Below are positions 20,901 to 45,405 of a DNA stretch of 55,462 nt, in pieces. The stretch's first letter is position 1. Each line of letters opens with the position of its first letter. The translations under genes were made by a program, and so were the position numbers. The stretch is from a virus (Duplodnaviria > Caudoviricetes), in the IMG/VR virus record IMGVR_UViG_3300028388_004387, positions 1 to 55,462 of that record; one strand, given 5' to 3'. A model generated the notes under the pieces. It made no database searches and was not told the origin of the DNA. It saw nothing but the letters and a program-made list of their open reading frames with translations.

Positions 20901-21924
20901 TGGAGCTACATGTATAGACGTTGAAACCATATATGCAGGCCCTTCATGCACCAACACAGTCAACGCAACACGCACAGCGCAGACATGCGATTACGAAATG
21001 TTCGACGAGCACCCGATAACAGGAGGCGCAAACTGGCGAGGGCGAGTGTTTGCAAACGTGTCGGACGCCACAGCTGAAAGGCGCTTTAGGGTTGAGAAAG
21101 ACTGCGGGGGAACGGTTACAACGGTGCTGGATACAACGCGCCTTGTCCCGCTTGCGCTTAGGCATACATATTTCAGCAATGCGTGGAACGAAGGGGACGT
21201 AATTGATTACGTTCGCCTTTACGAAAACGACGGAGCGGGAACAGTTACGGGCCCGATAGATGTGGTAGTGAATGTAAGCTTCACAGCAGGGCAGTCAAAT
21301 GCAACTATACGCACCAACCTTGAAAATGCAATAGAGGGTTGGCTGACGTCAAACTATTCAGCAAGCAACGGCTCAGACTATGAGCTTGAGATAGAGGTGC
21401 AAGGGAGCGGCACGCAGCGCAATGTGTGGATTCATTTCACATGCAGGCACGTGGGGGCGCAAAACTGGTTCGGGATAAACAAGACAGACAGCAACATGCA
21501 AATCACGCAGGTAGGCGGAGCGCTGTTCAATATCCCAGCTACACAACAGGAATGGGAGCGCAGCCCTTTCAATATCCCAGACGTGCAGTACACGCTGCCC
21601 TGCGGTACCGTGCTGCGAGTGCGTGTGCTATTCACAAATCCTCCGGGTATTATTGTAGATAGCAGCAGTAATTTCGATACACTCGTCCCGCTGGACCCTG
21701 CACCTTTCTACTACATACAGGACAGGCTTGGAAGCTGCACAGAACACACGCTGACAGCAAACACCTCCGGCTGCACAGGAACGGAAACCTTCGAGTGGAG
21801 GAATCCAGCCGGCACCGTTATAGGCACAACGCGCAGCATAGTCGTAACAGCAAGCGGCACATATGAGGTGACAGTAAAGTGCCCTGGCTGCCCAGATATA
21901 ACAGACACAGTAACCGTACCATAA
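14941..21924 (+). CDS. Giant Cys-rich tail tip/adhesin protein (2327 aa): N-terminal tail hub-like region plus SprB/PKD-like Ig repeats
   Basis: N-terminal LDL...L.L.K....L.DI...F.VP....N and PLVNYG hub-type motifs; repeats ADAG.D..IC.G...GGTAPYTYEW...TY.V.VTDA.GC. Confidence 0.8.
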   Translation: MSECCLVIEIIEALEHVPSRFYESDGRLILDLDSGSSLSLDKKAEELNDINQISIDVAAPFTVPASDKNFAILREYLNANIWNQNFKPWVVRVTQGGEPLRMRYLYPRAFNEGADSFELILSTDEHWVQKASELRLCDLNLPAIPVSCATWLDKMQNNAQYVDGDDGYWIPLVNYGGQNVLNYVPIEFLRPWYSLLYLLQVGFCQIGFKLSAPALETAFGRRILSYVWSEDYGKDRYVLDKRRASARMTLTDIPPYGQVPFTMVVTEEVGISSQNEIPLNDVLQDESQLLQPKPSGQFGTFTAYTGTGIVEVAIKGYLDNVDYLPASIITNLVLHIRLVKRDQDGNDIPLENHVIPWDPVVAPRLQFNHTFEPAEVLPGEYLFIDVVCDPVGQAFGEGQAFGINMSADFETQRVFFSEGEEIDPSSNISCKDSFLDLVKAAAHLLNAKFDTNLARQEVGMYCPYDVEWYGESVEGYYIEDGEVDDWSDKVQCKSERTTTPENNRERYLNIGFKRSQDKYIDDTLNEDEIDEEFNHIQDLGEQYRDATKSIRNPLFEPTLNGDVLIANQEVQEVLNIPVCWDNEDGEEISYKLGYRLLYAHGWDMQYFEEVAREWFFCLDGASYTSLPLAYQIPNRPTAITGTATTPDIPMWRLTYGASVNSLFNMFYRRIIAETLENYGIEFLIYIDVNMWGFIDFRKRYAINYKDTVLVAWIKEIRDWLPCSDVSTPVAFRGVRESTDCLPDPILALPPGAGFCSGNNPAIVAVRNGSCVDFSIGGVSVSPIVFQEWEYKKASETVFTSFGTNPTANLCTGERTTIKLTVAYDIGPDGSTCEPKTVITVINPCADNRPVGLCESYQNEDGDWCLKAEVGGVIFDPYVEQNFEYSVNGGTTWSSYTSGSELCGLAGTVNFRVTLNWSNDCADTLLEWSCNVEPAILDCDVTDADVTCAEVGGEVCCFEITPSATQFACQVATDVVYWRGTNDGSTWTEWTEWDGSNVCGHSKLQVKRVITFCDDCCPTYCSPISECQCCDLTADAGADESICPGTITTLTATPTGGTAPYTYEWQDSSGTTIGTTQSVNVMPASTETYTVIITDALGCTAQDSVTITVYPEMALSVSGDPGLAICNGGSTDVEVTVTGGTAPFTYDWREVGGGSLGTTNPITLSPVVTTDYEVEVTDANGCSKIELFTITVYPAVTADAGPDVTTCQGTVVLTGTPGGGTAPYTEEWEDPSGIITPGNPLTVSPPVTGTYIYRVTDANGCTAEDTLLLTASAGPTADAGADQTICPGDTATLSGSATGGTAPYSYEWFEGAVSIGTTQNVNVTPASTTTYTLEVTDASGCISTDTVEIIVDSCAPACGISCSIATNPSPAEICEGDSVEFTVTPAGMTGPYTYEWDADGGGFMTGSQTMVFTFVNAGTYTVQARVTDANGCMTTCSVSVDVEEPLCDPGAQAATVCQDSGTYTLWSLLTWPFPCTPPSPATGNWSLVSGNASWFTLSADGDPTNDIIDTTGIAGGSTASLDLTLTNGACADLIIRLDITIRSQFFSGHLAVTPVIDVCALGFDGKEFDLKTVYDTWLATQGQPPADAGGEWCEVKYDSGCVGPYTTKEVDAESTGCTTYPTTSDILPGGDNPTVNFECGAPNDGCYRIRYKAPAGELCPNDTVVTFKSETCTPTCTASVTITGTCLLTANVTGGCPGATYQWQRFVGGSWFNIAGATNSTYLSTANETVRVQVSCTDGCSYTSAPRTVSCAPACTATATVNQNCCLLTLITTNCSSQTQQWQEFVGGSWVNISGATGTTFNATGNGTYRAAVNCSGCPTIFTASRTVNINATISESSCVLTATVTGCTSVSNYQWQEFTGGTWQNRGSNQSTHDISGTNSTWRCVITMVGGCTYTSNTISKNCVVACSISISLVELPNGDLRATASGCGTLDTPQWTYATSYTIPGSCSGAGGWSAATGTTVTIGNVSTHTPANGAQCYRIIWRCLDGATCIDVETIYAGPSCTNTVNATRTAQTCDYEMFDEHPITGGANWRGRVFANVSDATAERRFRVEKDCGGTVTTVLDTTRLVPLALRHTYFSNAWNEGDVIDYVRLYENDGAGTVTGPIDVVVNVSFTAGQSNATIRTNLENAIEGWLTSNYSASNGSDYELEIEVQGSGTQRNVWIHFTCRHVGAQNWFGINKTDSNMQITQVGGALFNIPATQQEWERSPFNIPDVQYTLPCGTVLRVRVLFTNPPGIIVDSSSNFDTLVPLDPAPFYYIQDRLGSCTEHTLTANTSGCTGTETFEWRNPAGTVIGTTRSIVVTASGTYEVTVKCPGCPDITDTVTVP
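18028..19270 (+). repeat. Five tandem SprB/PKD-like Ig repeats (about 80 aa each) inside the giant tail protein
   Basis: Recurring GGTAP(Y/F)(T/S)(Y/E)(E/D)W (GMTGPYTYEW in the fifth) and (V/I)TDA(N/L/S)GC motifs. Confidence 0.8.
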
Positions 21925-22988: not shown

Positions 22989-24065
22989 ATGAGTCAAACC
23001 TTAGAGATACAAATTTTTGAAGAGATAGGTGGCTGGGGCTTCGGCATGCGCGACTTAGTTGAGCAGCTAAGAGGCTTCACCGGAACCAACATCCGCGTCC
23101 CTATTAACTCCTATGGAGGAGTTGTTACAGAGGGCATTTCAATTTACAACGTACTGAAAGGGAGGAAGGAGCATGTAGAGGCTCATATTGTAGGCTATGC
23201 AATGAGCATGGGTACAGTAATTGCCATGGCAGCGGATACTGTAACGATGCCCGAAAACGGCTACTTTATGATACATGAGCCGTGGGGCGTTGAAGTAGGC
23301 GACGCAGAGGAGATGGAAAAGATGAGCTCGCTGCTTGAGAAAATGGCGGAAATGCTTGCCAAAATATACAGCGAGAAGACAGGGCTCACTGTTAATCGCG
23401 TGAGGAAAATGATGAAAGAGGAGACGTGGCTTACTGCAAAAGAAGCGAAAGCGCTTGGCTTTGTAGACAAGCTCACTAAGGGTGCAGAAATTACTGCTGC
23501 ATACCATGTACAAAATCAGGAAATCCTGGCAGCTTGCAACAAGTTGCCTAAACCTATTTATAATTCACTTAAATCCACGGAAATGGAAAATACGTTTTTG
23601 AACAAAATCGGAAAGATTCTGGGTTTGGTAGGTGAAGGCACGGAGCCAATCACTGAGGACCAAGCAGAAGCAAAGCTCCAGGAGTTAGTTGAGCAAGCGC
23701 AAGCAAGCACGCAAAACACCGAGGAGCTGAGCAAGTTCCAGAACAATGTCAAAGACCTGTTCGGTAAAATGAACGAGGAGTTTGGCACCAAGCTCAAAGC
23801 TGTCCAAGACGAGTTAAGCGAAGTGAAAGCTGCCGCTGACAAATTCAAGGAAAGCAACGACGAGCTGACCACCAACTACAATGCGCTCCAGGAGGAGCTC
23901 AAGGAGTTGAAAGGCCAAGCCAGCGGAGGGCAAACCAAAGGCGACGGTGCTCCGCCGGCCCGGAAAACAGGTGCCGCTGCTGAAGGCGGTGCGACAGTCA
24001 TTGCTGCAAGCATGATTGACGAAATGCTCGGGAGCGATGTAAAAATCGTAAGGCCTGGAGCTTAA
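22989..24065 (+). CDS. ClpP-type prohead protease with C-terminal coiled-coil scaffold
   Basis: INSYGG.V.EG, G.AMSMGTVIAMA, FMIHEPW, ETWLTAKEAKALGFVD; coiled-coil C-terminal half. Confidence 0.92.
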   Translation: MSQTLEIQIFEEIGGWGFGMRDLVEQLRGFTGTNIRVPINSYGGVVTEGISIYNVLKGRKEHVEAHIVGYAMSMGTVIAMAADTVTMPENGYFMIHEPWGVEVGDAEEMEKMSSLLEKMAEMLAKIYSEKTGLTVNRVRKMMKEETWLTAKEAKALGFVDKLTKGAEITAAYHVQNQEILAACNKLPKPIYNSLKSTEMENTFLNKIGKILGLVGEGTEPITEDQAEAKLQELVEQAQASTQNTEELSKFQNNVKDLFGKMNEEFGTKLKAVQDELSEVKAAADKFKESNDELTTNYNALQEELKELKGQASGGQTKGDGAPPARKTGAAAEGGATVIAASMIDEMLGSDVKIVRPGA

Positions 24066-25353: not shown

Positions 25354-26019
25354 ATGAAAATCTTTAGTTTAGTATTGGCTCTAATCACCCTTCTGGGGGC
25401 TATCATATTTCCACAATTCGCTGTTGAGCTTCTGGGTGCGTTTGCAGTGCTTGGAGTGCAGGGTGCAATGTGTACCATAATCGCACTTGACGAGCAAGCA
25501 GATTGCCCAGAGGCCCAAGGCGGTATCTACCAAAGCTACTTGACGGAGTGCAGTAACATCACTCTTTCGGGTACTGCTAAAGACGTAGACGACCAAATCA
25601 CAACGCTGGTCATGACGGGTCTGGGCCTTTGGGTAAAGTGGGTTTATGATGATGACGATACAGCCTTTTACAATGAAACCGGAGAGCGGCAGGGTAACTT
25701 GCATGTGTTCAACCAGCAGGCCTTCCTAAAGTTTGGGGGACTAACCAACACCAAGAGGAAAGTTGCTAACGGTATCAAAGACTGCTGCTGCATTGTCGCA
25801 ATCCACTTCCTAAACAACGGTACGCAAGTTGTGCAAGGGATAGAGGAGGATTCTTCCGGCAACTGGAGATATACCTCCAGGAGTAGAGCGAAAGCCACTG
25901 TCAGCTTGCTATCCGGTACCGGAGCGGAAGAGGACAGAGCAGAAATTTCAATCGACTCAATTAGCCGCGCTGGGTCCTATGTCACGACACTGGATGCAGC
26001 AGCTATTGAAGCACTCTAA
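25354..26019 (+). CDS. Probable major tail (tube) protein with a 38-aa hydrophobic N-terminal leader
   Basis: Core starts MCTIIAL...DC...GGI and ends G.SGTG.EE, resembling Bacteroidota siphophage tail tubes; leader MKIFSLVLALITLLGAIIFPQFAVELLGAFAVLGVQGA. Confidence 0.65.
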   Translation: MKIFSLVLALITLLGAIIFPQFAVELLGAFAVLGVQGAMCTIIALDEQADCPEAQGGIYQSYLTECSNITLSGTAKDVDDQITTLVMTGLGLWVKWVYDDDDTAFYNETGERQGNLHVFNQQAFLKFGGLTNTKRKVANGIKDCCCIVAIHFLNNGTQVVQGIEEDSSGNWRYTSRSRAKATVSLLSGTGAEEDRAEISIDSISRAGSYVTTLDAAAIEAL

Positions 26020-29422: not shown

Positions 29423-31567
29423 ATGCTCAATTATATCACTCCGGTTTTGATTGCGCTTGCACTGCACTTTAGCGCTGGGACGCCAACCGCGCCCGTCTTT
29501 GAAAGCGCTGACCCTCCAGTGCTTTTTTCCTGCTTAGATTGCGACAAAAGAATAGGACCAGATTGCGGTATTTGCGATAACCTAAACACCGCAATCGTTT
29601 TTAAAGGCATACGCTTCCAAGAGGTGTATGGTACAAGGAAAAAGGATGTCTTAATCAGGTATCCTTTTAGCATTTCATACAGCCTCACAAAGCTGACAGT
29701 CAAAAGCGCTTTTGGCGAGGAGTACAGTTTCAAAGTAACGCAAGCTTCTGGGTACAGCAACGTTCACGATATCATTGCTGCGATGTGTGCTTGTTTTGCT
29801 GTTGATGTGACACCAGGAGACTTTAGCTGCGAAGCTGCGCTGGGCTGTTCTTACATAGCTCCGCAGCGTGCAGGAGATACTTGGTATTGGATACAATATG
29901 ACACAACCAACACGCCTATAGACACAACTTCCGTCAACCCAATTCCGCACGTATTTGTCAGCCCAGAGCTGCACGCAGGAGTAGACACAACAGGGTATAG
30001 GCTTGATTGGATAGACGGTTACGACGGGGTTCAGACTTATTTGCTGCGTATCCCAGACCACGTATATGACGACAGAAGCGTATCGTGGAGCGAGACGGAC
30101 ACTTCTTTCACGATACTTACATGCACCACTCCAAGCCCAGAACGTACGAGAGAATGCGATACAATAACGATATCAAAGTATAGCATAAGCTGCACAGACA
30201 TTTGGGACCACATTACAATCATCCCCGAAGCAAACGGAGATTCAATTTATTACAAAGCATACTGCAACGGAGTCATCCAGGACACCACAGCCGTAGTACC
30301 CAGGAAGGCGCGCGAGTTGCCTAATCCCTGTGAAGCATTTTTGGAGTGCTTTAGCTTTGATACCATATGCGTAACCAACGAGCAAATCATCCTCGATACG
30401 ATGGTAAGCTGCACGCTTGAGGAGCGCTTTGATACAATCATTTCACCGCTCGACACAACCATAGTCTGCGATACCGTTTTAACGCTGTGCGACACCGTGC
30501 CATTTCCTATTGATACGATTATAAATTGCGATGATATAGCGGAGCCTGATAGTTGCGACTTTACAGCTTTTTGGTGCTGCAACACAATAAACCGCTTCCG
30601 CTTTTCAGACGACCAGGGAAGCACCTGGACAGAGCTGGCACCTCCCCTGGGGACAAACGGATGGGCAAACGCTTCGCAGCTTGGGGGCTTGCCGCCAGGT
30701 TACATTGCGTACAGAGACGCAACTCAAGGGCTATGCGAACAGATTGAGGTAATGGCTTTAGCGCTAAGCCCAATGAACAGAATTTACGAGTGCCTTGTTA
30801 CCGAGAACCCTTTTGGAGTAAGTGTAGCAGGCCGCATAAATTGCAATGCAGATTTATGGATTGACGCCCGATATGATGTTACTGCAAACTGCGATGACTG
30901 CTATGCACCCGGAGTGGGAGCTTGGTACGAGTTCATGCGCTTTGATAGCACGCGCCCGTTCTATCGCATAGAAACTATTTGTGACACCACAATCCTGTAC
31001 GATACGCTATTTGTAGGCTGCGACACCACCATTACCTGCGATACAACTATTTCGGGCGGAGACACCACGTTTGTGCCGCTGCCTGATACGCTTATCTGCG
31101 ACACCACAATAGTCAGCGACACGATTACCACTGGAGACGGGTGCTGGATAGTGCTTGTGGATAGCACAGGCATGCCTAAAGACACTATCGCTTGGCTTCC
31201 GAGCGGAGGAGGCGGAGGAGGCTTTACAACTTGTGAGCAAGTACGCGCATGCTTAAGCGTTGACACTGTTTGGCAAGACGGAGCGGAGCTGGTATTTGTA
31301 GAGGCCATACAGGGCGATACCATACGCCTAAACTTAAATACCATGCTTATTTCAGACGCTGCCTGGAGTACAGCCTGGGACGGGGATACAGCAGCAGCTA
31401 CAAAGAACGCAATTTATGACGGTGTGTGGCGCGACGTTTCTCATGGGATTTACAGCAATGACGCAGACGCGGCAGCAAACGGATGCCCTATAAATCAAAA
31501 CTATACTTTGAACAATGTAAATACCTACGGACTGCCTGCGGGTACTATTAAAAGACGAGTAAATTAA
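29423..31567 (+). CDS. Predicted secreted, Cys-rich fibre-like protein with 27 D(S/T)(A/I/L/V/M/T) sequons
   Basis: N-terminal hydrophobic stretch VLIALALHFSA; dense DT(T/I/V/L) motifs; fibre-type motifs WDGDTAAATKNAIYD and C-terminal YSNDADAAANG.P. Confidence 0.8.
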   Translation: MLNYITPVLIALALHFSAGTPTAPVFESADPPVLFSCLDCDKRIGPDCGICDNLNTAIVFKGIRFQEVYGTRKKDVLIRYPFSISYSLTKLTVKSAFGEEYSFKVTQASGYSNVHDIIAAMCACFAVDVTPGDFSCEAALGCSYIAPQRAGDTWYWIQYDTTNTPIDTTSVNPIPHVFVSPELHAGVDTTGYRLDWIDGYDGVQTYLLRIPDHVYDDRSVSWSETDTSFTILTCTTPSPERTRECDTITISKYSISCTDIWDHITIIPEANGDSIYYKAYCNGVIQDTTAVVPRKARELPNPCEAFLECFSFDTICVTNEQIILDTMVSCTLEERFDTIISPLDTTIVCDTVLTLCDTVPFPIDTIINCDDIAEPDSCDFTAFWCCNTINRFRFSDDQGSTWTELAPPLGTNGWANASQLGGLPPGYIAYRDATQGLCEQIEVMALALSPMNRIYECLVTENPFGVSVAGRINCNADLWIDARYDVTANCDDCYAPGVGAWYEFMRFDSTRPFYRIETICDTTILYDTLFVGCDTTITCDTTISGGDTTFVPLPDTLICDTTIVSDTITTGDGCWIVLVDSTGMPKDTIAWLPSGGGGGGFTTCEQVRACLSVDTVWQDGAELVFVEAIQGDTIRLNLNTMLISDAAWSTAWDGDTAAATKNAIYDGVWRDVSHGIYSNDADAAANGCPINQNYTLNNVNTYGLPAGTIKRRVN

Positions 31568-31572
31568 AGAGA

Positions 31573-34500
31573 ATGAAAAATGTAGTGTTTTCGGTTTTCT
31601 TAGCAGTTTTAAGCGCAGCGCTGTTCATCCCGGATAGTGCTGCGCAAACTGTTATTGAAGGAGGCGCTGGCGTTGTGCATGTCAGCAGCGACCCAGACTC
31701 AGATGCAGCTTTGCAAACACAAAGCCCAGACGAAGCTTTGTTGGCTATTGATAACAACGGCGGAAGCTTGTATGTTTATGACAGCTTGGCAGCTATTACG
31801 TTGCGCTGGCTTAAGCTTAACGAAGGAGTAGATTGGATAGGCACTTTCGACGGGCAAGAGGGAAGCTATTACCTTGACTATAACAACCTCACAAACCTCC
31901 CCAGCATTCCAACCGTAGACGGCACAGCCTTTGGCCCTTCATGGGATGCTAACGGCGACGCAGCGACAAAGGATGCTATCTACGATGAATTGAGCAATGT
32001 AGGCCTTGACAATTTTGACACTGATGTCGGCCAGCTGTTCGGAATTGTAAGAGGAATTTACCTTGACGACCCGGACGAATGGATTACTTCAGACGGGACT
32101 ACTGTTACGTTGAACATAGAAGCCACGGGAGGCGGCGACATAAGGATGCTATTTAGCGATGGCGTTTTCACATTAGATGCAACTCCAACAGCTACGATTG
32201 CTCTTACAGCAGGGAGCGATGTATCGCCTACTTTGAACTACATCTACATACCGCAATCCACAAAGGTTTTGACTGTTTCAACAACCGGGTGGCCTTCCAC
32301 TGAATATATCGCAGTTGGAACGGCTCTTGTACAAAGTGCTGCGTCGGTTCAAACGGATGGGGTTTACAAGTTTCATCAGTGGAGCGACCACGCTTATAAA
32401 GCCTCGAATAATACAGGCCATTTAGCTCACTTGAACTATTGGATAAGACAACAAGCGGCAACATGGACCAGCGGAGTTGCTTTGACTCCAACGGCTGGAG
32501 TTGGACAATTAGATATAACCACGACAAGCGGTAATATCTTGCAGCTTCATCCTCATGCCTTCCCTGCTTTCACGACAGTTGGAGCAACGGATGATATCTA
32601 CGTAATAAACGACCCTGATGCAGCCTATACAAAAGTAGGAGGATTAACCCAGGCAGAGGGAGTTGATAAAGACTTGAATGGAACCCTTCTTGGGGACCCC
32701 GCAACAGACTTTTATAACCTGGTATTATGGGGCGTTGTTTCGGAGGATTTGACTGACTGTAAATTGATGTTGAACTTGCCAGATGGAGCCTACGCAAATG
32801 ACAATGACCAACAGGCTACCCTTGACAGGGAAAACACAGCAGCCTACGACATCCCGATGGAATATGTAGGAACAGGGTTCCTTATTGCACGCTTAACCAT
32901 CCAGGAAAATGCTGGGACCTATACAGTTGTCAACAACGAAGATTTGAGAGGCTTATTTCCTTCAACTGCTGCTGGAGACGGTACAGGCTTAGGGCAAGGA
33001 AGTGAGTTCGCCGACAATGCGTTTAGGATACATGACGAGGCTGACATATCCAAGGAGGTAGAATTTCAACTTAACGGAGTGACTACATCCACGCTCAGAA
33101 CATTGACTGTTCCGGATGCAAGCGGTACTATCGCCCTAACGTCCGACGTATTTACTCCAAGCACATTGTTGGCTGACTACGGATTCACAGATAATTCCTC
33201 AAATTGGAATACAGCATTTGGGTGGGGCGACCATGCACTTGCAGGCTACCTGACGGATGCTCCAAGCGACGGTTCAGAGTATGTCAGGCTAAACGGAGCG
33301 TGGGCAGTAGCAAGTGGAGGCGGAGGAGGCGGTCCCACATTTGGAACAGACAACCAAATTCCGTACACCAATGCAGGTGGAACGGATTATGATTATTCAG
33401 CCAATTTCACATATGATGGAGCAGGATTATATGTGGGCGGAACAGATGTGGCACTTGATGCAACGGCCAATATAAAAAGCAGCGACGCCAAAAGCTTGAA
33501 AATAATGAACACGGCAACCTCAGGTTCGAGCGCCGGCGCCGGCATTGTCGCAATGTCAGATGATGGAAGCGCGAATGTTGCTGGTGACCGTCTTGGGTTC
33601 TTTTTGTTTGGGGGAAATAATGGGTTAGCAATAAGAAATGCAGCAGGTATTGTCGGATATTCTCAAAGCACATGGAACGGGAGCAATCAGGAAGCTAAAC
33701 TTGTAATTGAAACAAGTCCACCAAATGTGGGCAATGTGCGCGAAGAAGTAGCGGAATTTGATTACACCGGGCTAACAATGGGAACAGGCAACAAGATTGT
33801 CATTGATGGATTGACATTGGAGGATGGGAGTATTTACACAACAGCCGGCGACCTGTTTATTCAAAGTGCAACGGGGAACATGGAGTTGGGCAATATTAGG
33901 TTTGATTCATATCAAACATTAGGAGCGGCACAGCAAGATTTTGTATTCGATTATGATAATGTCAGCGGCATAGCAGCATTTAGAGAATTTGATGGAGACC
34001 ATGCTGACATCGACTACACACCAACGTTTTATACACCCACAACAGCTCCAGCAGAAGCAGCAGACGCTGACGACCTTGCCGCGCACCTTGCGGGTGTTAA
34101 TGCAGCTATTGGAGGGCTGACACCCGAAAACGATGCTTTTGATGCAACATGGGACGGGGACCTTGATGCAGCAACGAAGAACGTGATTTACGACTATGTA
34201 AGCACGCTGATTGCGGAGCTGAAAGACGACCCAACACCCGAGCTGGCTGCTAATTTGATAATGAACGGAACGGCATTTGTTGACACTGTTACGCTCGGGG
34301 AAAATGCCTCCGCAAGAGACTTGCTTACGCTCGACACTGACCTTACTGATGGCAACTATTACCTAACGGACTGCGACGACGTTTCAAGGAGTACAGGGCA
34401 CCTGGTTTTAGCACTGGAAGCTGGGCTGGCAACGGAGCAAATTCAAGTGGCGATATTGGGTAAGGTTCCCGGTTTTACTGCGTTAAGCCAAAAGCCCTAC

Positions 34501-34647
34501 TATATCAGCGCAACTCCAGGCGCAATTACAGACACTGCACCCAGCACCGAAGGACAGGTTGCTCGCATAGTAGGGCAAGGGACAGACACAAATACAATTT
34601 TTAACTTTCAACCAGCAAGTTCATGGGCTATCGTTCAAACACCTTAG
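31573..34647 (+). CDS. Fibre-like protein (1024 aa) with Sec signal peptide
   Basis: MKNVVFSVFLAVLSAALFIPDSAA|Q; phage-fibre motifs RTLTVPDASGTIALTSD, WNTAFGWGDHA.AGYL, DAPSDG..YVR..GAW; C-terminal DUF2190-like cement domain (YYISATPGAIT.TAP). Confidence 0.85.
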   Translation: MKNVVFSVFLAVLSAALFIPDSAAQTVIEGGAGVVHVSSDPDSDAALQTQSPDEALLAIDNNGGSLYVYDSLAAITLRWLKLNEGVDWIGTFDGQEGSYYLDYNNLTNLPSIPTVDGTAFGPSWDANGDAATKDAIYDELSNVGLDNFDTDVGQLFGIVRGIYLDDPDEWITSDGTTVTLNIEATGGGDIRMLFSDGVFTLDATPTATIALTAGSDVSPTLNYIYIPQSTKVLTVSTTGWPSTEYIAVGTALVQSAASVQTDGVYKFHQWSDHAYKASNNTGHLAHLNYWIRQQAATWTSGVALTPTAGVGQLDITTTSGNILQLHPHAFPAFTTVGATDDIYVINDPDAAYTKVGGLTQAEGVDKDLNGTLLGDPATDFYNLVLWGVVSEDLTDCKLMLNLPDGAYANDNDQQATLDRENTAAYDIPMEYVGTGFLIARLTIQENAGTYTVVNNEDLRGLFPSTAAGDGTGLGQGSEFADNAFRIHDEADISKEVEFQLNGVTTSTLRTLTVPDASGTIALTSDVFTPSTLLADYGFTDNSSNWNTAFGWGDHALAGYLTDAPSDGSEYVRLNGAWAVASGGGGGGPTFGTDNQIPYTNAGGTDYDYSANFTYDGAGLYVGGTDVALDATANIKSSDAKSLKIMNTATSGSSAGAGIVAMSDDGSANVAGDRLGFFLFGGNNGLAIRNAAGIVGYSQSTWNGSNQEAKLVIETSPPNVGNVREEVAEFDYTGLTMGTGNKIVIDGLTLEDGSIYTTAGDLFIQSATGNMELGNIRFDSYQTLGAAQQDFVFDYDNVSGIAAFREFDGDHADIDYTPTFYTPTTAPAEAADADDLAAHLAGVNAAIGGLTPENDAFDATWDGDLDAATKNVIYDYVSTLIAELKDDPTPELAANLIMNGTAFVDTVTLGENASARDLLTLDTDLTDGNYYLTDCDDVSRSTGHLVLALEAGLATEQIQVAILGKVPGFTALSQKPYYISATPGAITDTAPSTEGQVARIVGQGTDTNTIFNFQPASSWAIVQTP

Positions 34648-36125
34648 CGTTACTTTTTGCGCTGTGCTTAGTCGCACTGCAAGGAGCAAGCCAGGCGCAT
34701 ATGATAATCAGAGGTAACAGCACCTTGACGGATTCAATACCGGATAGCGGCGACACGCTCAACCTTAAATGGCCGGATGCTGACACTTTGGTTGGTACTG
34801 CTATTCGTTACATAGCAGCAGATGGCTCGTTTGTTTTTGATAGCGCAGGGCGATACCATGTGCAGTACACTGAAAAGCTAACAACATCCTCTACAAATAC
34901 CGCCTACCCTGTTGAACCTAAAATTGGAATTTGGCATTCAGGCCACCAATATTTTTATGGCAGAAAAACACATTGGATAAGCAAGCAGACAAGCAGCAAT
35001 TCAGCTCAAATAACCAACGCAGCGTTGATTGATGCAGCAATAGGCGATACGGTTAGGATTATAGTCGAACGAGTAGATGCAGTTGTTCAGAACGGGGAAA
35101 AGCCTGTGCGCGCAGCAGAAGAAAGCAGCGTTGTCATTTTCAAATTTCCTAACCATTGGGAATGGGCAAGCTATTTCAAAACATCAGCCCAAGCAATAGG
35201 CACCGGAATCAATGCAATCAACTACATAACCCTTGATTCAACCGCACAGGAAGGTACGCCATTCACTTTAGAGGCAAACGGATATGATGTGACAAGCGGA
35301 ACAGCTAATCATATTCTTGCTTACTTTAGTATGAGCGCAAACGGAACCGGAGCAACTGCGGACTATAACATTCAAACCCGGAACAGATTCGCAGGTAACA
35401 CCAATACATACAGGCCGTGGCTGGACAACAAATATTCAAGTTCGTCAGTGCAAAAATTATCCTTTGGGGCGTCGGGTATTTGGCCGGCATCAGTTAGTGA
35501 AACATTTGCAATGCAAACGGTAAACAGGAATGCGACGTATGGCTCAACAAATATCAATACATACGAACTACAAATGATTGAATTACCGTCTACTTCAGAA
35601 GTATTTCATGTGCGTGGCGGTAGCAACCCACAAAACGGATTGGACCAAGACTTCCTTTGGACACAAGTTTTTGAAATAGATGCGCTAACATACGACCAAC
35701 CAAACGACACATTGATAACCATTGAAAAGGCGGGGACCTATTTGTTTTTTGGTGGTTCACAGATTGGCGGAAGCGGAGGTGCTGCATATACTATACCGCG
35801 ACACCAAATAACTATTGACAATACAGTAGATACACGCTTTGGCAGCTCGGACTTCATTAGGGGTGGCTCAACGCTTGACCACATGACGACACAGTTCTCG
35901 GCGATTGTGCCGGGCATAACAGTAGGCACGGAATTAAGGTACCAAGCCAACCGGCTGGGTGCGTCGGGCGGCGGCAATTCAAACGGTGATGTTTTTCAAG
36001 GTATCAACCTAACCACCATACTTGGCAGCCCAGCAGCGCCTTCAAGCGCCTTAGGTATAAACGGAGTAGACGCTTCCACAGTAAACGGCGTCAATTATAG
36101 TTCATTTATAGGTATATCAAAGTAA
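34623..36125 (+). CDS. Predicted secreted beta-sandwich (C1q/TNF-like repeat) protein, receptor-binding candidate
   Basis: Signal-like LALLFALCLVALQGA|SQ; repeated F.F..AG.Y.V / I.I.KAGTYLF strands; C-terminal INGV....VNGV motif. Confidence 0.7.
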   Translation: MGYRSNTLALLFALCLVALQGASQAHMIIRGNSTLTDSIPDSGDTLNLKWPDADTLVGTAIRYIAADGSFVFDSAGRYHVQYTEKLTTSSTNTAYPVEPKIGIWHSGHQYFYGRKTHWISKQTSSNSAQITNAALIDAAIGDTVRIIVERVDAVVQNGEKPVRAAEESSVVIFKFPNHWEWASYFKTSAQAIGTGINAINYITLDSTAQEGTPFTLEANGYDVTSGTANHILAYFSMSANGTGATADYNIQTRNRFAGNTNTYRPWLDNKYSSSSVQKLSFGASGIWPASVSETFAMQTVNRNATYGSTNINTYELQMIELPSTSEVFHVRGGSNPQNGLDQDFLWTQVFEIDALTYDQPNDTLITIEKAGTYLFFGGSQIGGSGGAAYTIPRHQITIDNTVDTRFGSSDFIRGGSTLDHMTTQFSAIVPGITVGTELRYQANRLGASGGGNSNGDVFQGINLTTILGSPAAPSSALGINGVDASTVNGVNYSSFIGISK

Positions 36126-36130
36126 AAGAT

Positions 36131-36505
36131 ATGAAACACTTGTTGCTCTTTTTTATGCTTGCTTGTGCAGTAGCTTGCAAGCCAGCAAGCGAATCGCTCC
36201 AGCTCGATACAGTGCAGCCAGCCTTGCAAAGCGCACCTGCTTACAGTATTGGGCAGCTTGTAGAGATGAGGACGTACAGCGAGGCAAGAGGGCAAAAGGT
36301 TGCAGACGCAGACGGTAATGTAAGCTTTGGCGGGCTGGTTTTCAACATAGATATGATTCAGTATGCAGGCGATACAATGCGCGTGTCAAACGTCATTACA
36401 GAAATGCCGGGCCTAGACCCTTTGCTTTTGCCTTTGTACGAAATGGAAACGGATAACCAGGAGTGGCTTTGGCCTGAGGTTTTTATCAAAAAGAAAGCCA
36501 GGTAA
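36131..36505 (+). CDS. Predicted lipoprotein
   Basis: MKHLLLFFMLACAVA|C lipobox-type signal peptide. Confidence 0.7.
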   Translation: MKHLLLFFMLACAVACKPASESLQLDTVQPALQSAPAYSIGQLVEMRTYSEARGQKVADADGNVSFGGLVFNIDMIQYAGDTMRVSNVITEMPGLDPLLLPLYEMETDNQEWLWPEVFIKKKAR

Positions 36506-36566: not shown

Positions 36567-36836
36567 ATGGACATAATGCAGCTGATTAAACTGGTGAATG
36601 ATTACGGCACACTGCCCGTCTTGGTGTTTGTGTGCTATATTTGTTATAAGATGTTCGTCAGCGAAAGAGCAAAAGCAGACAAGTGCGCAGAAAGAAGATT
36701 TGAGGACATCAAAGAACACACGGACGACACTAAGGCTTTACTGCAAACAACTCTTAAAGCTATCGGCGAAATGCAGCAAGCAAGCAAGCAGGTAGCTGAA
36801 GCGTGCAAAGAGATTAAAGACATTCTGACAAAATGA
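36567..36836 (+). CDS. Single-TM plus coiled-coil protein (holin-like candidate)
   Basis: YGTLPVLVFVCYICY TM segment followed by a charged helix. Confidence 0.55.
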   Translation: MDIMQLIKLVNDYGTLPVLVFVCYICYKMFVSERAKADKCAERRFEDIKEHTDDTKALLQTTLKAIGEMQQASKQVAEACKEIKDILTK

Positions 36837-37201
36837 TTAGAGCGATTTTAAGTCACTTACGGAACGACTATGCTACAGAAATCACGTGGGAAGAAATGCT
36901 AAGCATTAGCAGAACAGAATGGACACAGGTAAGTGAAGGATGCAAGGGCATACGAGTAAGAATGCCCGCTCCAAAAATTATGAGCTTTATCATTAAAATG
37001 GAACCGGGCTCGCATATACCCAATCATTGGCACGAAAAAGTGAAAGAATATTTTACGCTGCTGGAAGGAGATTGCTTTAGCAATATTTACCGGGACATGG
37101 AGACAGGTACTGCATACAAAGTGCATCCAGGTGTAGAGCATAACTTTAGCACAGAAAACGGGTGCTTGCTGCAAATGACTGCGGTACGGGTAGGGAAATA
37201 G
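36833..37201 (+). CDS. Cupin-domain protein
   Basis: PGSHIPNHWH...EYFTLLEG and VHPGVEHNF cupin metal-binding motifs. Confidence 0.8.
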   Translation: MIRAILSHLRNDYATEITWEEMLSISRTEWTQVSEGCKGIRVRMPAPKIMSFIIKMEPGSHIPNHWHEKVKEYFTLLEGDCFSNIYRDMETGTAYKVHPGVEHNFSTENGCLLQMTAVRVGK

Positions 37202-37257
37202 TTGTAGAACACCATGTAAGCCGCTATATTTAACGTCAATCAAAATCATAAAGCTTT

Positions 37258-37743
37258 ATGGAAACCCTAATGAAAATTATCGTACGAACGTTTTTCATGT
37301 TCTACGGAGACAAGCTGAAAGGCGACCGTACTGCGCTTGTAGGAGTGCTGACGGGTATTTTGGCGCTTTGGACAATGATACAAGGCGAGGGACTTTTTCA
37401 AGCGCTGTGCGACTTGGCTGCAAAGATTCCCTTCTTTAGCAAGTTCTGCGACATTGAGTCCACCGTCTATTACAGCATTATGCTGGCGCTGGTAGCAGGC
37501 GTAACAACTGCGCTGAAGTATCTGGACACAAACGAAATGGGCAAGCAGAGGATGATGTCAAGCGGATACACAGAGGGCAATTTTGCTCGGCTCGAAATTT
37601 ATGCCATTGCAGCAGCGCTTATTGTAGTGGCAGCAGTAGTAGTAGGTATATGGAAGATGGGCTTTGCTGCGCTGCTGTTTGGCCTCATTCCTATTTGGCT
37701 ATTGACAAACATATTGGGAGCGATTAAAGCCGCTACCAAGTAA
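37258..37743 (+). CDS. Multi-pass membrane protein (holin candidate)
   Basis: About four hydrophobic segments; LKGDRTALVGVL resembles the LKG.KT start seen in small phage holins. Confidence 0.55.
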   Translation: METLMKIIVRTFFMFYGDKLKGDRTALVGVLTGILALWTMIQGEGLFQALCDLAAKIPFFSKFCDIESTVYYSIMLALVAGVTTALKYLDTNEMGKQRMMSSGYTEGNFARLEIYAIAAALIVVAAVVVGIWKMGFAALLFGLIPIWLLTNILGAIKAATK

Positions 37744-38262: not shown

Positions 38263-39228
38263 ATGGCACAAGAAAAACAGCCGAAAAAAAGTTTTGTGGA
38301 GCGCATGCGCGACAACGTATTAAAGCCCCTGCAAGAGCTCGGGATGGAAAAGGCGCAAGCGGAGGCAGAAATACAATGGGCAGCAGAGCAGATTCTTAGC
38401 TCGGAGCAGCTTTTAAAGTGTTCAGCAAATAGCCTTTTCAATGCTGTGCTGGATACTGCACGAATGGGACTATCTCTTAACCCTTCTCGCGCTGAAGCTT
38501 ACTTAACCACAAAGTGGGATAAGGTGTCTAAATCGGCTAAGGCATATTTAGAGCCAAGCTACCGAGGCTTGACTTTGTTAGCTGCGCAATCTTGCGGAGC
38601 CAAGTACAGCATTGCTCATGTAGTGTACAGCGACGACGATTTTGTTATGCCCAATCTGCTTGACCCAAAAAGCGTTGCGGTTCATAAGCCAAGCTTAAAA
38701 AAGAGCGGAGAGCCTATAGGCGCTTATTCGCAGTTCGTTCTACCTGACGGTACTGCGCTGTTTGAGTACATGACGATTGACGAGATTAAGGAGGTGCGTA
38801 GTGCAAGCCAAGGGTGGCAGGCATTTGAGAAAAAGAAAATACAAGCAACGCCCTGGCACAATTGGTTTGGAGAAATGGCGCGCAAGACAGTAGTAAGGAG
38901 GCATATCAAATACCTACCTAAGTACGAGAACACGAAGTACGAAAAGCTGATGGCTGCTGCAAGCGCGATAGATAGCCAATACGAGTTTGAAAACACTCCG
39001 GTGGTAGTAGCAGCGGATGAGCAGGAGAACGTGCGAGAGAACGCGCGAGAAACGCTTGTGAAGCAAATTACCGAGGGCTTAAGCAAGTGCAGCAAAGAAA
39101 CACAGCAAGAGCTGAAGGAGCTGCTAAGAGAGAAAAAGGCAGCAGGAGAAATCACCTTGCAGCTACTTGAGGCAGTGGCGAAGCAAATAGAGGAAGAAAT
39201 TGCAGAATCAACAAGCACGGAGCAGTGA
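38263..39228 (+). CDS. recT: RecT-family single-strand annealing protein
   Basis: LLKCSANSL.NA....A..GLSLNP...EAYL, SYRGL, VVY..DDF, PW..WF.EMARKTVVRR..KYLP. Confidence 0.92.
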   Translation: MAQEKQPKKSFVERMRDNVLKPLQELGMEKAQAEAEIQWAAEQILSSEQLLKCSANSLFNAVLDTARMGLSLNPSRAEAYLTTKWDKVSKSAKAYLEPSYRGLTLLAAQSCGAKYSIAHVVYSDDDFVMPNLLDPKSVAVHKPSLKKSGEPIGAYSQFVLPDGTALFEYMTIDEIKEVRSASQGWQAFEKKKIQATPWHNWFGEMARKTVVRRHIKYLPKYENTKYEKLMAAASAIDSQYEFENTPVVVAADEQENVRENARETLVKQITEGLSKCSKETQQELKELLREKKAAGEITLQLLEAVAKQIEEEIAESTSTEQ

Positions 39229-40567: not shown

Positions 40568-40805
40568 CTTCGAGCTTGACGGAGTTAAGTATGCAGCATT
40601 TCACGGAGAGTGTAGACTGGAGGATAGGGGCGGCAAGTGCTTTCTAATAGTAAAGGGAAGCGTAGGAGAGCTGGTGGTTGCTTTGAGCAATGTTGCAGAC
40701 ATGAAGTTTGGCAGCAATAAAACGTCAAAAGCAAACGTCTTAAACCTGTGCAGCACACAGGACAATCAAAACAATAAACCACAAAAAACCAATGACAACG
40801 ACTGA
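40467..40805 (+). CDS. Hypothetical protein (start uncertain)
   Basis: 112-aa ORF filling the gap before queE. Confidence 0.5.
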   Translation: MAKRMYKYMSSLKRERAELLLSEWKLWTVVLKDSFELDGVKYAAFHGECRLEDRGGKCFLIVKGSVGELVVALSNVADMKFGSNKTSKANVLNLCSTQDNQNNKPQKTNDND

Positions 40806-41595: not shown

Positions 41596-41641
41596 ATAGG
41601 AAAATCAAGTAGTAAACTTTATCTTAGCACAAACAGGAAAT

Positions 41642-42490: not shown

Positions 42491-42492
42491 GC

Positions 42493-43044
42493 ATGGAAAA
42501 GATAGTAGAATGGGTGCCCGTACCCGGTTTTGATAAGTACGAGTTCAACAAGTACGACGGGCAAATCAGACAAAAGAAAAACGGCAAGGTGCTTGAAGCA
42601 AGCACAAAAGGATGGACTGTAAGGCTAAGAACCAGCGACGGTAGCCGTAAAACCGTTTCTCCGGCGCGTCTCGTGCGCGAAGGGGATTGGCCCTGGAAAA
42701 CTATCCCGGAAGGCATAAAAGCGCGAGAGAACGCAAAAGAGCCCAGCGAGAAGCCAAGTAAGAAGCAAACAAGGATTGAGCGTGACGGAGTAAGGGCGCG
42801 CAAAGCAAAAGGTCAAAAGCTTGTTCCGCGCAGCGCAGCTCCAGCCAAGCCCAAGTATGACGAGCGGACAAAGCGAAAGGTAAAGCTCAACCCTTTGCTT
42901 GCAAAAAAGATAAGAGGACTGCGCAAGGAGGGATGGTACTTAAGGGAAATCGCAGAAGAGTTTGGTGTGCATGTTAGCACGGTAAGCGAAATCTGCTCAA
43001 ATAAACTTTACAAAATCATTAAAACCACAAAACAAGATGGCTAA
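42493..43044 (+). CDS. NUMOD4-like N-terminal domain plus C-terminal HTH DNA-binding protein
   Basis: EWVPVPGFDKYEF...GQIR; IRGLRKEGWYLREIAEEFGVHVSTVSEI; no HNH motif between them. Confidence 0.7.
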   Translation: MEKIVEWVPVPGFDKYEFNKYDGQIRQKKNGKVLEASTKGWTVRLRTSDGSRKTVSPARLVREGDWPWKTIPEGIKARENAKEPSEKPSKKQTRIERDGVRARKAKGQKLVPRSAAPAKPKYDERTKRKVKLNPLLAKKIRGLRKEGWYLREIAEEFGVHVSTVSEICSNKLYKIIKTTKQDG

Positions 43045-44618: not shown

Positions 44619-44629
44619 AATCAAAGAAC

Positions 44630-45358: not shown

Positions 45359-45405
45359 CAGCACCTACCAAGCATCATTAAGGTATAAACCAAAAGCAAC
45401 AGCAA

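Follow-up and report, generated by a model that had tools for sequence, protein, structure and literature searches.

Excess of Bacteroidota O-glycosylation sequons in a putatively exported, fibre-like protein of a tailed phage

In Tannerella forsythia, cargo of the T9SS forms the main class of glycoproteins, occupancy of the O-glycosylation sites exceeds 99%, and the sequon is wider than D[ST][AILVMT], admitting S, C, G or F at the third position too (PMC8550257). The most heavily glycosylated protein reported is the S-layer protein TfsB, 19 of whose 20 predicted sites were detected (PMC8550257). According to a review, engineered sequons become glycosylated, and known sites show a slight preference for Ser and, at the next position, for Leu over Ile, Val and Thr, in that order (PMC12871550). 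The system acts only on exported proteins, and a protein from which the signal peptide has been removed stays unglycosylated (PMC8550257; PMC12871550). Export in Bacteroidetes carries a signature of its own, the Q-rule, under which Gln follows the cleaved signal peptide in a mean of 71% of substrates (PMC5837995). Phages of Porphyromonas gingivalis encode five genes with Q-rule signal peptides, described as being of unknown function, for which the authors suggest a modification of the host envelope (PMC10367356). Among the literature matches listed, judged mostly by title and opening of the abstract, we found no description of a phage substrate of Bacteroidota O-glycosylation or of tail fibres with Sec signals. 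Assembly of tailed-phage virions takes place in the cytoplasm, and the virions of mycobacteriophages are reportedly glycosylated there by phage-encoded glycosyltransferases, as Freeman et al. are said to have described in 2023 (Cell Host Microbe).

The window analysed here is the whole stretch of 55,462 nt that makes up IMG/VR record IMGVR_UViG_3300028388_004387 (Caudoviricetes). Past the head genes, ahead of lysis-like genes and away from the tail module at 9.8–22 kb, it contains an ORF, named 29423 after its first position (as are the other ORFs below), in the product of which the excess of O-glycosylation sequons is a real anomaly. Besides that excess and its specificity, a fibre module and a run of signal-peptide-like N-termini are shown; what we infer beyond them is export of the protein, the phylum of the host, attachment of glycans and their role. 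Judged from sequence features, host O-glycosylation of an exported, fibre-like protein appears to be the best reading of the locus, and it is put forward tentatively.

The layout of the gene and of its neighbours is given in Table 1. The start codon of 29423 is fixed by an in-frame TAA two codons upstream, and the encoded protein is acidic, its mature form having about 76 kDa and a pI of about 4.2. The Cys-rich region includes a CX2C-X7-CX2C cluster (aa 37–51), and the central region a single S-x-D-x-G-x-T-W motif (aa 395–402, nt 30605–30628), which we take to be Asp-box-like; Pfam gave no match to the BNR family in this protein. The G6 run recurs in neighbour 31573, at its aa 582.

Table 1. 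Features of gene 29423 and of the three genes that follow it (positions in the window)
Feature	Position (nt)	Strand	Description
Gene 29423	29423..31567	+	714-aa orphan protein, 35 Cys, 27 sequons
N-terminal hydrophobic segment, aa 1–19	29423..29479	+	Putative Sec signal peptide
N-terminal Cys-rich region, aa 20–312	29480..30358	+	6 scattered sequons; no family or homologue
Sequon tract 1, aa 313–376	30359..30550	+	7 sequons
Central region, aa 377–507	30551..30943	+	Sequon-free
Sequon tract 2, aa 508–592	30944..31198	+	11 sequons
Hexaglycine hinge, aa 595–600	31205..31222	+	G6 run
C-terminal fibre-like domain, aa 601–714	31223..31564	+	Sole part with relatives
Fibre module, aa 647–666	31361..31420	+	Inside the C-terminal domain
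Conserved C-terminal motif, aa 672–714	31436..31564	+	
Neighbour 31573	31573..34647	+	1024 aa, canonical signal peptide, Gln after likely cleavage site
Neighbour 34623	34623..36125	+	500 aa, signal peptide, Gln after likely cleavage site
Neighbour 36131	36131..36505	+	124-aa lipoprotein, lipobox with Cys16

Sequon excess and the nature of the tracts

The initial annotation had counted 27 of the 30 D[ST] dipeptides of the 29423 protein as fitting D[ST][AILVMT], and our recount agrees; the exceptions are DTW152, DTS226 and DSC376, and 29 of the 30 fit the wider T. forsythia motif. Nine of the sequons lie outside the two tracts. The test that had been proposed, shuffling the residues at constant composition, was run and placed the count far above expectation: 20000 shuffles gave a mean of 4.65 (sd 2.0, maximum 15), none of them reaching 27, and a second set gave 4.60 ± 1.98 (z 11.3; 0/5000 reaching 27). 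With 37.8 sequons per 1000 aa, the protein heads the 54 plus-strand ORFs of at least 100 aa over which densities in the window were ranked, followed by 36131 (16.1, n = 2) and 34623 (14.0, n = 7), for both of which the earlier counts hold as well. It is also the sole density outlier among 1027 ORFs of at least 100 aa from the window and 71 related viral loci, where the next ORF of at least 150 aa has 18.0 per 1000 aa (n = 3).

The excess is directional and motif-specific. Control motifs are flat in the same protein (E[ST][AILVMT], 2 against 1.9 expected; N[ST][AILVMT], 3 against 2.2; the reversed motif, 2 against 4.7), and a depletion is seen where the residue after D[ST] does not complete a sequon (3 against 6.7). 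Outside the two tracts the nine sequons compare with 2.58 expected, a number reached in 3 of 5000 shuffles. Among the neighbours, 34623 has 7 against 1.98 expected (1/2000 shuffles) and 36131 has 2 against 0.28 (55/2000). In 31573 the sequons are, if anything, depleted (4 against 7.3 expected), which counts against a glycosylation reading, and in the 2327-aa tail protein, which has no signal peptide, they are not enriched (13 against 10.8).

These figures bear on the main alternative, namely that 29423 encodes an ordinary cytoplasmic virion fibre in which DT(T/I/V)(I/F/V) units with Cys form a shaft repeat, for example a beta-rich or a metal- or disulfide-stapled stalk, the sequon being a by-product and neither export nor glycan being involved. 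We regard it as unlikely, though it is the rival that survives best. The avoidance of non-sequon D[ST]x, the excess outside the repeats and that in two neighbours with signal peptides all speak against it. However, the enrichment concerns DT alone (26 against 7.5 expected), DS not being in excess (4 against 3.9), and this favours a shaft and counts against glycosylation. The residue after D[ST] is Thr in 12 cases, Ile in 8, Val in 3 and Leu in 2, which, like the lack of a DS excess, departs from the preferences at known sites (PMC12871550) and counts against glycosylation. In favour of it, the commonest triplet is DTT (n = 10), and the title of Plummer et al. 1995, a paper on Flavobacterium meningosepticum, reportedly names Asp-Thr-Thr as a consensus site.

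The label 'mucin-like' that had been given to the protein suits it poorly, since Ile, Val, Leu and Cys, together with Thr and Asp, abound in the tracts, in contrast to the Pro/Thr/Ser-rich tandem repeats of low hydrophobicity that mark a mucin-like domain, and the DNA that encodes the tracts has no tandem repeats. The only tandem repeat in the gene is the run of Gly codons, and the codons of the D[ST] dipeptides are mixed (GAT 16, GAC 14, with all four ACN used); thus it is in the protein that the motif is conserved, with units that differ in length and in their flanks, and a recent expansion of DNA repeats as the origin of the tracts was rejected.

The spacing of the units is nonetheless constrained. 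In tract 1, the starts of the last five sequons (aa 337–364) are 6–7 aa apart and the earlier ones 12 aa, and in tract 2 they follow one another at 5–8 aa from aa 521 to 566, often with Cys directly before Asp. Cys occupies the position right before Asp in 7 of the 30 dipeptides, and Ile the second position after Thr (+3 from Asp) in 8 of 30. As these constraints go beyond what a sequon needs, the units look like a structural repeat, which counts against glycosylation and argues for the shaft, as do the regular 5–8 aa spacing and the prevalence of strong beta-formers instead of Pro, Ser and Gly. Against it, D-T-x is all that is kept throughout, and no repeat fold was obtained with AlphaFold, although the model of the whole protein as a single sequence (pLDDT 32, pTM 0.21) is uninformative; an analogous Bacteroidales tract, described below, was modelled at a pLDDT of about 21.

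Export, neighbouring genes and host

The initial annotation had further proposed that the phage uses the glycosylation system of its host to coat a fibre. The specific excess, the probable host, the C-terminal fibre module with its predicted trimerisation and the absence of a transferase among the phage proteins scanned fit this proposal, which had however overlooked the requirement for export. Tailed-phage virions are assembled in the cytoplasm and the system modifies exported proteins only, which counts against the proposal. Gene 29423 heads a run of four consecutive genes with hydrophobic Sec-type N-termini, the other three being canonical, and with such N-termini throughout the block the periplasmic glycosylation machinery could reach the 29423 protein; this arrangement is not expected of a cytoplasmic shaft. 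By a hydropathy heuristic and reading by eye, its own N-terminus has a hydropathy of 2.12 over 12 aa (aa 5–16) and a cleavage region of small residues. It has no Lys or Arg ahead of the hydrophobic core, which counts against export and in favour of the cytoplasmic fibre.

The CX2C-X7-CX2C cluster could be a zinc site, and zinc sites are commoner in cytoplasmic proteins, so that the cluster counts against export and glycosylation; moreover, the 2327-aa tail protein is also Cys-rich (94 Cys) and has no signal peptide. Both points favour the cytoplasmic fibre.

Among the co-oriented neighbours, 31573 has a conserved core of 350 aa that makes it a member of a widespread family of phage tail fibres, and 34623 has an Atlas model with a likeness to tandem C1q/TNF-like jelly rolls of the kind seen in fibre tips. 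Gln would be exposed after cleavage in three signal peptides of this phage (2564, 31573 and 34623), as determined by reading. No T9SS sorting domain (Por_Secre_tail or related) was matched by Pfam or NCBIfam in 29423, 31573, 34623 or 36131, and export of the 29423 protein by this system was therefore rejected. The earlier remark that no phage glycosyltransferase could be recognised proved correct in scans of the window proteins: no such family was found in 49 of them with Pfam or in 10 more with PHROGs only, mostly ORFs of at least about 95 aa.

The host is probably a member of the Bacteroidota, as suggested by the Gln after three signal peptides, by gene starts that are poor in Shine-Dalgarno sequences and A-rich, and by a terminase relative. 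Shine-Dalgarno-like words precede only 9 of 72 genes, compared with 17% of random windows, and positions −14 to −10 upstream of the phage starts are rich in A. The sole relative of the terminase found in genome contigs belongs to a Bacteroidota MAG (26% identity). A SprB repeat scored just below its cut-off (27.5 against 28), and no clues to the host were found from tRNAs or spacers.

The C-terminal module and related tracts in other genomes

The 29423 protein is an orphan over most of its length. Neither tblastn against 50,697 phage records nor megablast of the 20 kb around the gene gave a match, a word-based search of 5.8 billion proteins returned the protein itself alone, and scans of viral contigs with its peptide patterns, as well as an MCP-based search for related phages, found none. 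Pfam, PHROGs and NCBIfam gave no match either, PDB sequences gave nothing below E 1, and a search of the ESM Atlas with aa 300–600 gave a best feature score of 0.76 and a TM of at most 0.30, below the bar of the tool. With HMMER over 1.84 billion representatives, seven matches were obtained, all within aa 614–714, where fibre proteins align with E values from 7e-9 to 1e-3; no representative in that set is related to the body of the protein.

The phage tail fibres P0002, P0005, P0006 and P0008, of which P0002, one of the HMMER matches, carries Pfam BppL_N, share with the 29423 protein a W-(D/N)-G...T-K-N-A-(I/V)-Y-D module, which is repeated in them; there is one copy in 29423 (aa 647–666) and two in 31573. 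They align with only about 50 residues of the 29423 protein and differ from it in that they lack a signal peptide and that their sequon density is 0 to 10.9 per 1000 aa. A homotrimer model of aa 596–714 (three copies) scored 0.52 (0.52, 0.54 and 0.52 in the individual runs) against 0.00 for the best control, with a pLDDT of at least 50 and agreement between runs in at least 47% of contacts, and placed the predicted interface at aa 652–669, formed by the fibre module. In the calibration of this score, which used two copies, 21 of 30 solved pairs reached the mark and none of 23 single chains did; the score may reflect likeness to solved fibres. The predicted trimerisation of the C-terminal fibre module also favours the cytoplasmic reading, and the putative N-terminal signal makes a fibre of the virion the weak part of the claim. 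It should be noted that sequon DTA655 falls within the predicted interface, which counts against glycosylation.

Sequon tracts of a similar kind occur in secreted proteins of Bacteroidales. Among the matches listed, 9 of the 11 genome loci that match DTTIxxDTTI and have at least nine sequons per 100 aa are labelled Bacteroidales or Bacteroidetes, and the four of these nine that were scanned with Pfam all carry BspA-type LRR or PKD domains. A T9SS sorting domain or DUF6383 is present in three of these four (L155, L160 and L167), whereas L188 combines LRR with an InlB B-repeat and has no sorting domain; signal-peptide-like N-termini were seen in the eight analogues read except L167, which runs off the end of its locus. 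Like those of 29423, the DT(T/I/V)(I/V) tracts of such BspA-type LRR/PKD proteins from Bacteroidales and Bacteroidetes MAGs (L155, L237, L160, L167, L157, L169, L188, L195 and L225) are irregular and hydrophobic and lie between folded domains, with 10–19 sequons 6–10 aa apart; the proteins are not homologous to 29423, and next to their units stand His, Asn and Tyr in place of its Cys. In the AlphaFold model of one of them the flanking domains reach a pLDDT of 85–95, and the tract, at about 21, is without secondary structure and linker-like.

Bacteroidota account, by label, for about 27–31 of at least 120 listed DTTI matches, the upper figure including Kapaibacterium, Ignavibacteriales and Colimorpha, which we assume to belong to this phylum. 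Short DTTI repeats are also found outside it, in Selenomonadaceae, Actinomycetota, giant-virus contigs and fibre-like viral proteins, three of which (L047, L008 and L021) carry G-D-T-T-I-x-G units; this counts against glycosylation and favours the cytoplasmic shaft. A further point against glycosylation is that dense tracts are scarce within the phylum: when 400 Bacteroidota genomes were sampled, a three-unit DT pattern turned up in 4 (and in the centre genome), compared with 2 of 400 for the reversed control. A stricter pattern had no match, not even in the genome that contains L155.

The idea that exported phage fibres are selected for sequons in general was rejected: relatives of 31573 with signal peptides have an observed/expected ratio of 0.98 (n = 17) against 0.96 without (n = 102; p 0.29), and in the related loci 33 ORFs with signal-peptide-like N-termini have 1.06 against 0.96. 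The lack of excess in these exported relatives counts against glycosylation and favours a second rival, in which the protein is exported and the tracts form a folded, disulfide-stabilised stalk, with Thr buried or inaccessible and glycosylation sparse, incidental and unselected. This seems improbable: although the 35 Cys, many of them in or beside the tracts, would oxidise in the periplasm and the unit constraints exceed the needs of a sequon, accessible sites of known substrates are almost fully occupied (PMC8550257), engineered motifs are modified (PMC12871550), and both the avoidance of non-sequon D[ST]x and the excess outside the tracts are left unexplained.

Proposed function and comparison with known systems

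Under host O-glycosylation of an exported protein, the product of 29423 would be fibre-like and trimeric, and the tailed phage that encodes it would have a host among the Bacteroidota. Directed by its hydrophobic N-terminus, the protein would pass through Sec and reach the periplasm, as would those encoded by 31573, 34623 and the lipoprotein gene 36131. There the general O-glycosylation system of the host would meet up to 27 Asp-Thr/Ser sites (29 with the wide motif) and modify nearly every accessible one, as in its known substrates. The two tracts would become glycan-covered spacers that set apart the N-terminal Cys-rich part, the central region and the trimerising C-terminal domain, and the glycan load would mask these hydrophobic stretches and shield them from proteases. 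As for the fate of the protein, we find it rather probable that it acts at or from the cell envelope, and possible, if less so, that it joins virions once lysis mixes the compartments.

Homologues of fibres with Sec signal peptides were also found at the tail-fibre position in L068, L073, L092 and L101. Conceivably, though we would not expect it, these phages and the present one produce side fibres by way of the periplasm, where disulfides would form and O-glycans of the host be added before the fibres join cytoplasmic head-tail particles, which would happen only once the holin opens the inner membrane. No such assembly pathway is known for tailed phages, and it would be the first case in which the general protein glycosylation of a host serves to dress a virion. 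The recurrence of these homologues in uncultivated phages may matter more than the single protein, and raises the question of the site at which such fibres mature.

If exported and glycosylated, the 29423 protein would provide the first demonstrated case of a phage-encoded substrate for the general O-glycosylation system of Bacteroidota, and its 27 sites would exceed the 20 predicted in TfsB, the heaviest substrate reported (PMC8550257). Phages could then borrow the species-specific glycan of their host, which bears on immune recognition, protease resistance and the recognition of self and non-self in gut, oral and aquatic Bacteroidota, and the protein would offer glycoengineering a natural carrier of glycans at high density.

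Among the systems described, the Q-rule proteins of P. gingivalis phages are, as is proposed for 29423, adapted to the Sec/signal peptidase I pathway of Bacteroidota; the part of that report available to us mentions no link to fibres or glycosylation (PMC10367356). The glycosylated virions of mycobacteriophages provide the parallel of phage structural proteins that carry glycans, with the difference that in the present phage no transferase was found among the proteins scanned and the periplasmic system of the host would act. In its sites the 29423 protein resembles the S-layer proteins TfsA and TfsB of T. forsythia, substrates of the general O-glycosylation system, which are large and extracytoplasmic and have many D(S/T)(A/I/L/V/M/T) sites. 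These are, however, host proteins; as T9SS cargo they have a sorting domain, and their sites are scattered, whereas the 29423 protein, about half their size, is encoded by a phage, has no sorting domain and carries 18 of its 27 sites in two short tracts.

Sequon excess and layout of the 714-residue protein

The protein encoded at 29423 carries a real and large anomaly in its content of D[ST][AILVMT], the sequon of the general O-glycosylation system of Bacteroidota. As the initial annotation had counted, 27 of its 30 D[ST] dipeptides fit the motif, and the shuffle test of density proposed there, now run on the protein's own residues, gave 4.65 ± 2.0 sequons with a maximum of 15 in 20,000 shuffles; a second run (n = 5000) gave a z-score of 11.3. 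The two dense tracts it described are present (7 sequons in residues 313–376, 11 in residues 508–592), yet they leave out nine others, against 2.58 expected, a number reached in 3 of 5000 shuffles. The excess is motif-specific: shuffles predicted 1.9 for the Glu-for-Asp motif (2 found), 2.2 for the Asn-for-Asp motif (3 found) and 4.7 for the backward motif (2 found), and D[ST] followed by a non-sequon residue is depleted (3 against 6.7). Sequon codons are mixed and a Gly run is the sole DNA tandem repeat, which argues that the motif is maintained at the protein level. None of the others among the 1027 ORFs examined, from the window plus 71 related viral loci, approached this density.

Claimed counts for two neighbours, designated by start coordinate, were also reproduced (34623: 7 against 1.98 expected, 1 in 2000 shuffles; 36131: 2 against 0.28, 55 in 2000). 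The product of 31573 has 4 against 7.33, and the 2327-residue tail protein 13 against 10.8. The excess belongs to the 29423 protein and, more weakly, to 34623 and 36131.

From its N-terminus the 29423 protein comprises a hydrophobic stretch, a Cys-rich region, tract 1, a central region that lacks sequons and holds a single Asp-box-like motif, tract 2, a hexaglycine hinge and a fibre domain. No relatives of residues 1–610 were found in phage records, viral contigs, protein databases, Pfam, PHROGs, NCBIfam, PDB or, for residues 300–600, the ESM Atlas. Residues 614–714 matched, in a homologue search, tail-fibre proteins with a repeated W-(D/N)-G...T-K-N-A-(I/V)-Y-D module (one with Pfam BppL_N), present in two copies in 31573, and three short proteins sharing its last 40 residues. 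Modelled as three copies, residues 596–714 scored 0.52 (runs 0.52, 0.54 and 0.52; best of three controls 0.00), with partner pLDDT of at least 50 and contact agreement between runs of at least 47%; in the calibration, which used two copies only, 21 of 30 solved pairs and none of the 23 single chains attained the score mark. The predicted interface, residues 652–669, is the fibre module. This fits a trimeric fibre-like C-terminus, and the prediction may mirror likeness to solved fibres.

A CX2C-X7-CX2C cluster at residues 37–51 (window 29531–29575) could bind metal. An S-x-D-x-G-x-T-W motif occurs once, at residues 395–402 (30605–30628), and G-(S/T)-T-W stretches in the 2327-residue tail protein resemble it.

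Probable host, possible export and the neighbouring genes

The window is a complete IMG/VR virus record of 55,462 bp with direct terminal repeats and nearly all long ORFs on the plus strand. It represents a tailed phage to which none of 50,697 deposited phage records is closely related. QueE-like, GTP cyclohydrolase, QueF-like, tRNA-guanine transglycosylase-like, QueC-like and PTPS/QueD-like genes suggest a modified guanine in its DNA, and the endonuclease at 2564–3157 is apparently secreted. Directly 3' of the gene after the head protease, 25354–26019 encodes a 221-residue protein with about 35 hydrophobic residues at its N-terminus, unusual within a head module. No endolysin family was recognised in the window; candidates for lysis functions (36567–37743 and 48700–49410) are an 89-residue protein in which a single N-terminal membrane helix is joined to a charged helical tail, a 161-residue membrane protein and, further on, a matrixin-like peptidase. 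In other viral loci, proteins of 170–200 residues are laid out like unimolecular spanins, starting with a lipoprotein signal and ending in a membrane anchor, and have a run of 4–6 D(S/T)x sequons spaced 6–7 residues apart in the periplasmic part.

Coordinates of features in the window, in viral loci (L005–L101) and in genome-contig loci (L155–L237)
Source	Coordinates	Strand	Feature
Window	2564–3157		DNA/RNA non-specific endonuclease; N-terminal signal-anchor or signal peptide, then Gln
Window	9814–13323		Tape measure protein
Window	14941–21924		Tail protein, 2327 aa; PKD and Hoc-like Ig domains, 94 Cys, 272 Thr
Window	22989–24065		ClpP-type head maturation protease
Window	29423–31567	+	Sequon-rich protein, 714 aa
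Window	38263–39228		RecT
Window	40792–45840 (about 40.8–45.8 kb)		7-deazaguanine (queuosine-type) gene set
Window	50789–52258		Large terminase
L068	9320–15970		Signal-gene block, uncultivated viral genome
L073	9374–15186		Signal-gene block, uncultivated viral genome
L092	9317–14501		Signal-gene block, uncultivated viral genome
L101	9161–13019		Signal-gene block, uncultivated viral genome
L005	6428–6988	+	Spanin-like sequon protein
L009	10046–10645 (reverse-strand coordinates)	−	Spanin-like sequon protein
L027	7415–7945 (reverse-strand coordinates)	−	Spanin-like sequon protein
L036	10301–10873	+	Spanin-like sequon protein
L040	11377–11946 (reverse-strand coordinates)	−	Spanin-like sequon protein
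L155	4871–7936	−	Analogue protein
L160	2986–5436	−	Analogue protein
L167	4151–7984	−	Analogue protein
L188	928–3207	+	Analogue protein
L233	3853–4869	+	Bacteroidetes protein, 338 aa, 21 sequons, no family
L237	2647–6873	+	Analogue protein

Since the O-glycosylation system is described as acting on non-cytoplasmic proteins only (PMC8550257; PMC12871550), topology was the link missing from the initial argument for a phage fibre coated with host glycan. The start of the 29423 ORF is secure, with a stop two codons ahead of it; in residues 1–19 a hydrophobic core, with no Lys or Arg before it, leads into small residues, and a Pro/Thr-rich stretch comes next. Signal-peptide-like N-termini, called in the window by eye and with a hydropathy heuristic, occur in four consecutive gene products (29423, 31573, 34623 and the lipoprotein 36131), and cleavage, as read by eye, would expose Gln in 31573, 34623 and the nuclease. 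In Bacteroidetes, a mean of 71% of signal peptidase I substrates are reported to follow this Q-rule, which is far rarer in most other phyla (PMC5837995), and Q-rule proteins are reported as encoded by Porphyromonas phages (PMC10367356).

A Shine-Dalgarno-like word precedes 9 of 72 gene starts, against 17% in random windows, and positions −14 to −10 contain about 60% A and 4–14% G. Upstream regions poor in Shine-Dalgarno words and rich in A are typical of Bacteroidota. The sole terminase relative found in genome contigs lies in a Bacteroidota MAG (26% identity), and the 2327-residue tail protein, which lacks a signal peptide, has a SprB repeat scoring just below the cut-off. Judged from these sequence signals and the Q-rule, the host is probably a member of the Bacteroidota.

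A 350-residue core of the 31573 product recurs in at least 213 proteins and in 71 viral loci, and the product belongs to a tail-fibre family because its relatives' variable C-termini hold fibre- or spike-type domains (Peptidase_S74, collagen, beta-helix and others). Signal-peptide-like N-termini were seen in 17 of the 119 relatives listed, ten of these with a small residue then Gln. In several uncultivated viral genomes (L068, L073, L092 and L101), signal-bearing relatives, of Sec or lipoprotein type, stand in blocks that hold two to four genes of this kind, apparently where tail fibres are usually encoded; those in L068 and L073 look to come after tape-measure- and distal-tail-like genes, judged by size and order, which is an ordinary fibre position. 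Gene 34623 (34623–36125, 500 residues) shares its first 25 nt with the end of 31573. No sequence relatives of its product were found; as leads only, the Atlas model of this product (pTM 0.75) is similar to three C1q/TNF-like jelly rolls in tandem, to a Bacteroidota cluster that has PTL_trimer, and to lambda Stf-like proteins. Three such jelly rolls in one chain would make a pseudo-trimer that resembles a fibre tip. Given the fibre family of 31573, the signal-bearing blocks of its relatives and the fibre-like model of 34623, the block 29423–36505 looks like an exported fibre set, odd for a tailed phage.

The idea that sequons generally accumulate in exported phage fibres was rejected: the 17 signal-bearing relatives have no excess (observed/expected 0.98, against 0.96 in the 102 without signals; Mann–Whitney p 0.29), nor do 33 signal-peptide-like ORFs of related loci (1.06, against 0.96 in 993 other ORFs, with the 29423 protein removed).

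Host glycosylation or a structural repeat

Our best reading, tentatively held, is that the 29423 protein is exported, trimeric and fibre-like, and that once it reaches the periplasm the host system would glycosylate its DT sites. The boldest reading, in which the fibres would be matured in the periplasm and would attach to particles when the cell lyses, is a long shot.

Alternatively, the fibre would be cytoplasmic and the tracts nothing more than a structural repeat; we consider this less probable than host glycosylation but a serious contender. DT alone is enriched (26 against 7.5; DS 4 against 3.9), and the next residue is dominated by Thr (12) and Ile (8), unlike the known sites, for which a review reports a slight Ser preference and then Leu > Ile > Val > Thr (PMC12871550). 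Of 30 units, 7 have Cys just ahead of Asp and 8 have Ile after the sequon, and DTTI-type short repeats occur in fibre-like viral proteins, giant-virus contigs, Selenomonadaceae and Actinomycetota. However, unit length in the tracts varies from 5 to 8, D-T-x alone is kept across units, and the excess reaches beyond the tracts; moreover, the title of a 1995 paper on Flavobacterium meningosepticum reportedly gives Asp-Thr-Thr itself as a consensus site. That the protein is exported and glycosylated only incidentally seems improbable.

Bacteroidota analogues and known glycoproteins

Scanning genome contigs for DTTIxxDTTI gave at least 120 loci, and 11 among the matches listed had at least nine sequons within 100 residues: nine labelled Bacteroidales/Bacteroidetes, and two perfect tandem repeats in Selenomonadaceae. 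Of the eight of these nine whose sequences were inspected, all but L167, which runs off its locus, have signal-peptide-like N-termini, and they are read as secreted surface proteins; the four scanned with Pfam all have BspA-type LRR or PKD domains, and three a T9SS sorting domain or DUF6383, L188 having LRR and InlB B-repeat only. Their tracts are hydrophobic, hold 10–19 sequons and lie between folded domains. In an AlphaFold model of one analogue, from a five-sequence alignment, the flanking domains are predicted at pLDDT 85–95 and the 130-residue tract at about 21, without secondary structure. DT tracts are rare: 4 of the 400 Bacteroidota genomes sampled had a match, and the reversed control matched in 2. 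If glycosylated, the analogue tracts, L233 included, would be the densest substrates of the Bacteroidota system.

A literature search returned no report of a phage protein modified by this system or of tail fibres with Sec signals; two candidate papers mention the system only as a host trait. Mycobacteriophages have glycosylated virions, the sugars reportedly being attached by phage-encoded cytoplasmic transferases, whereas here, in keeping with the initial annotation, no phage glycosyltransferase was recognised in 49 window proteins (Pfam) and 10 more (PHROGs only). In the literature consulted, the heaviest substrate named for the Bacteroidota system is TfsB, with 19 of 20 predicted sites detected; site occupancy is given as above 99% and the average glycan as about 1.7 kDa (PMC8550257). 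The 29423 protein has 27 sites, and its 76-kDa chain, loaded to the same degree, would by arithmetic gain roughly 46 kDa.
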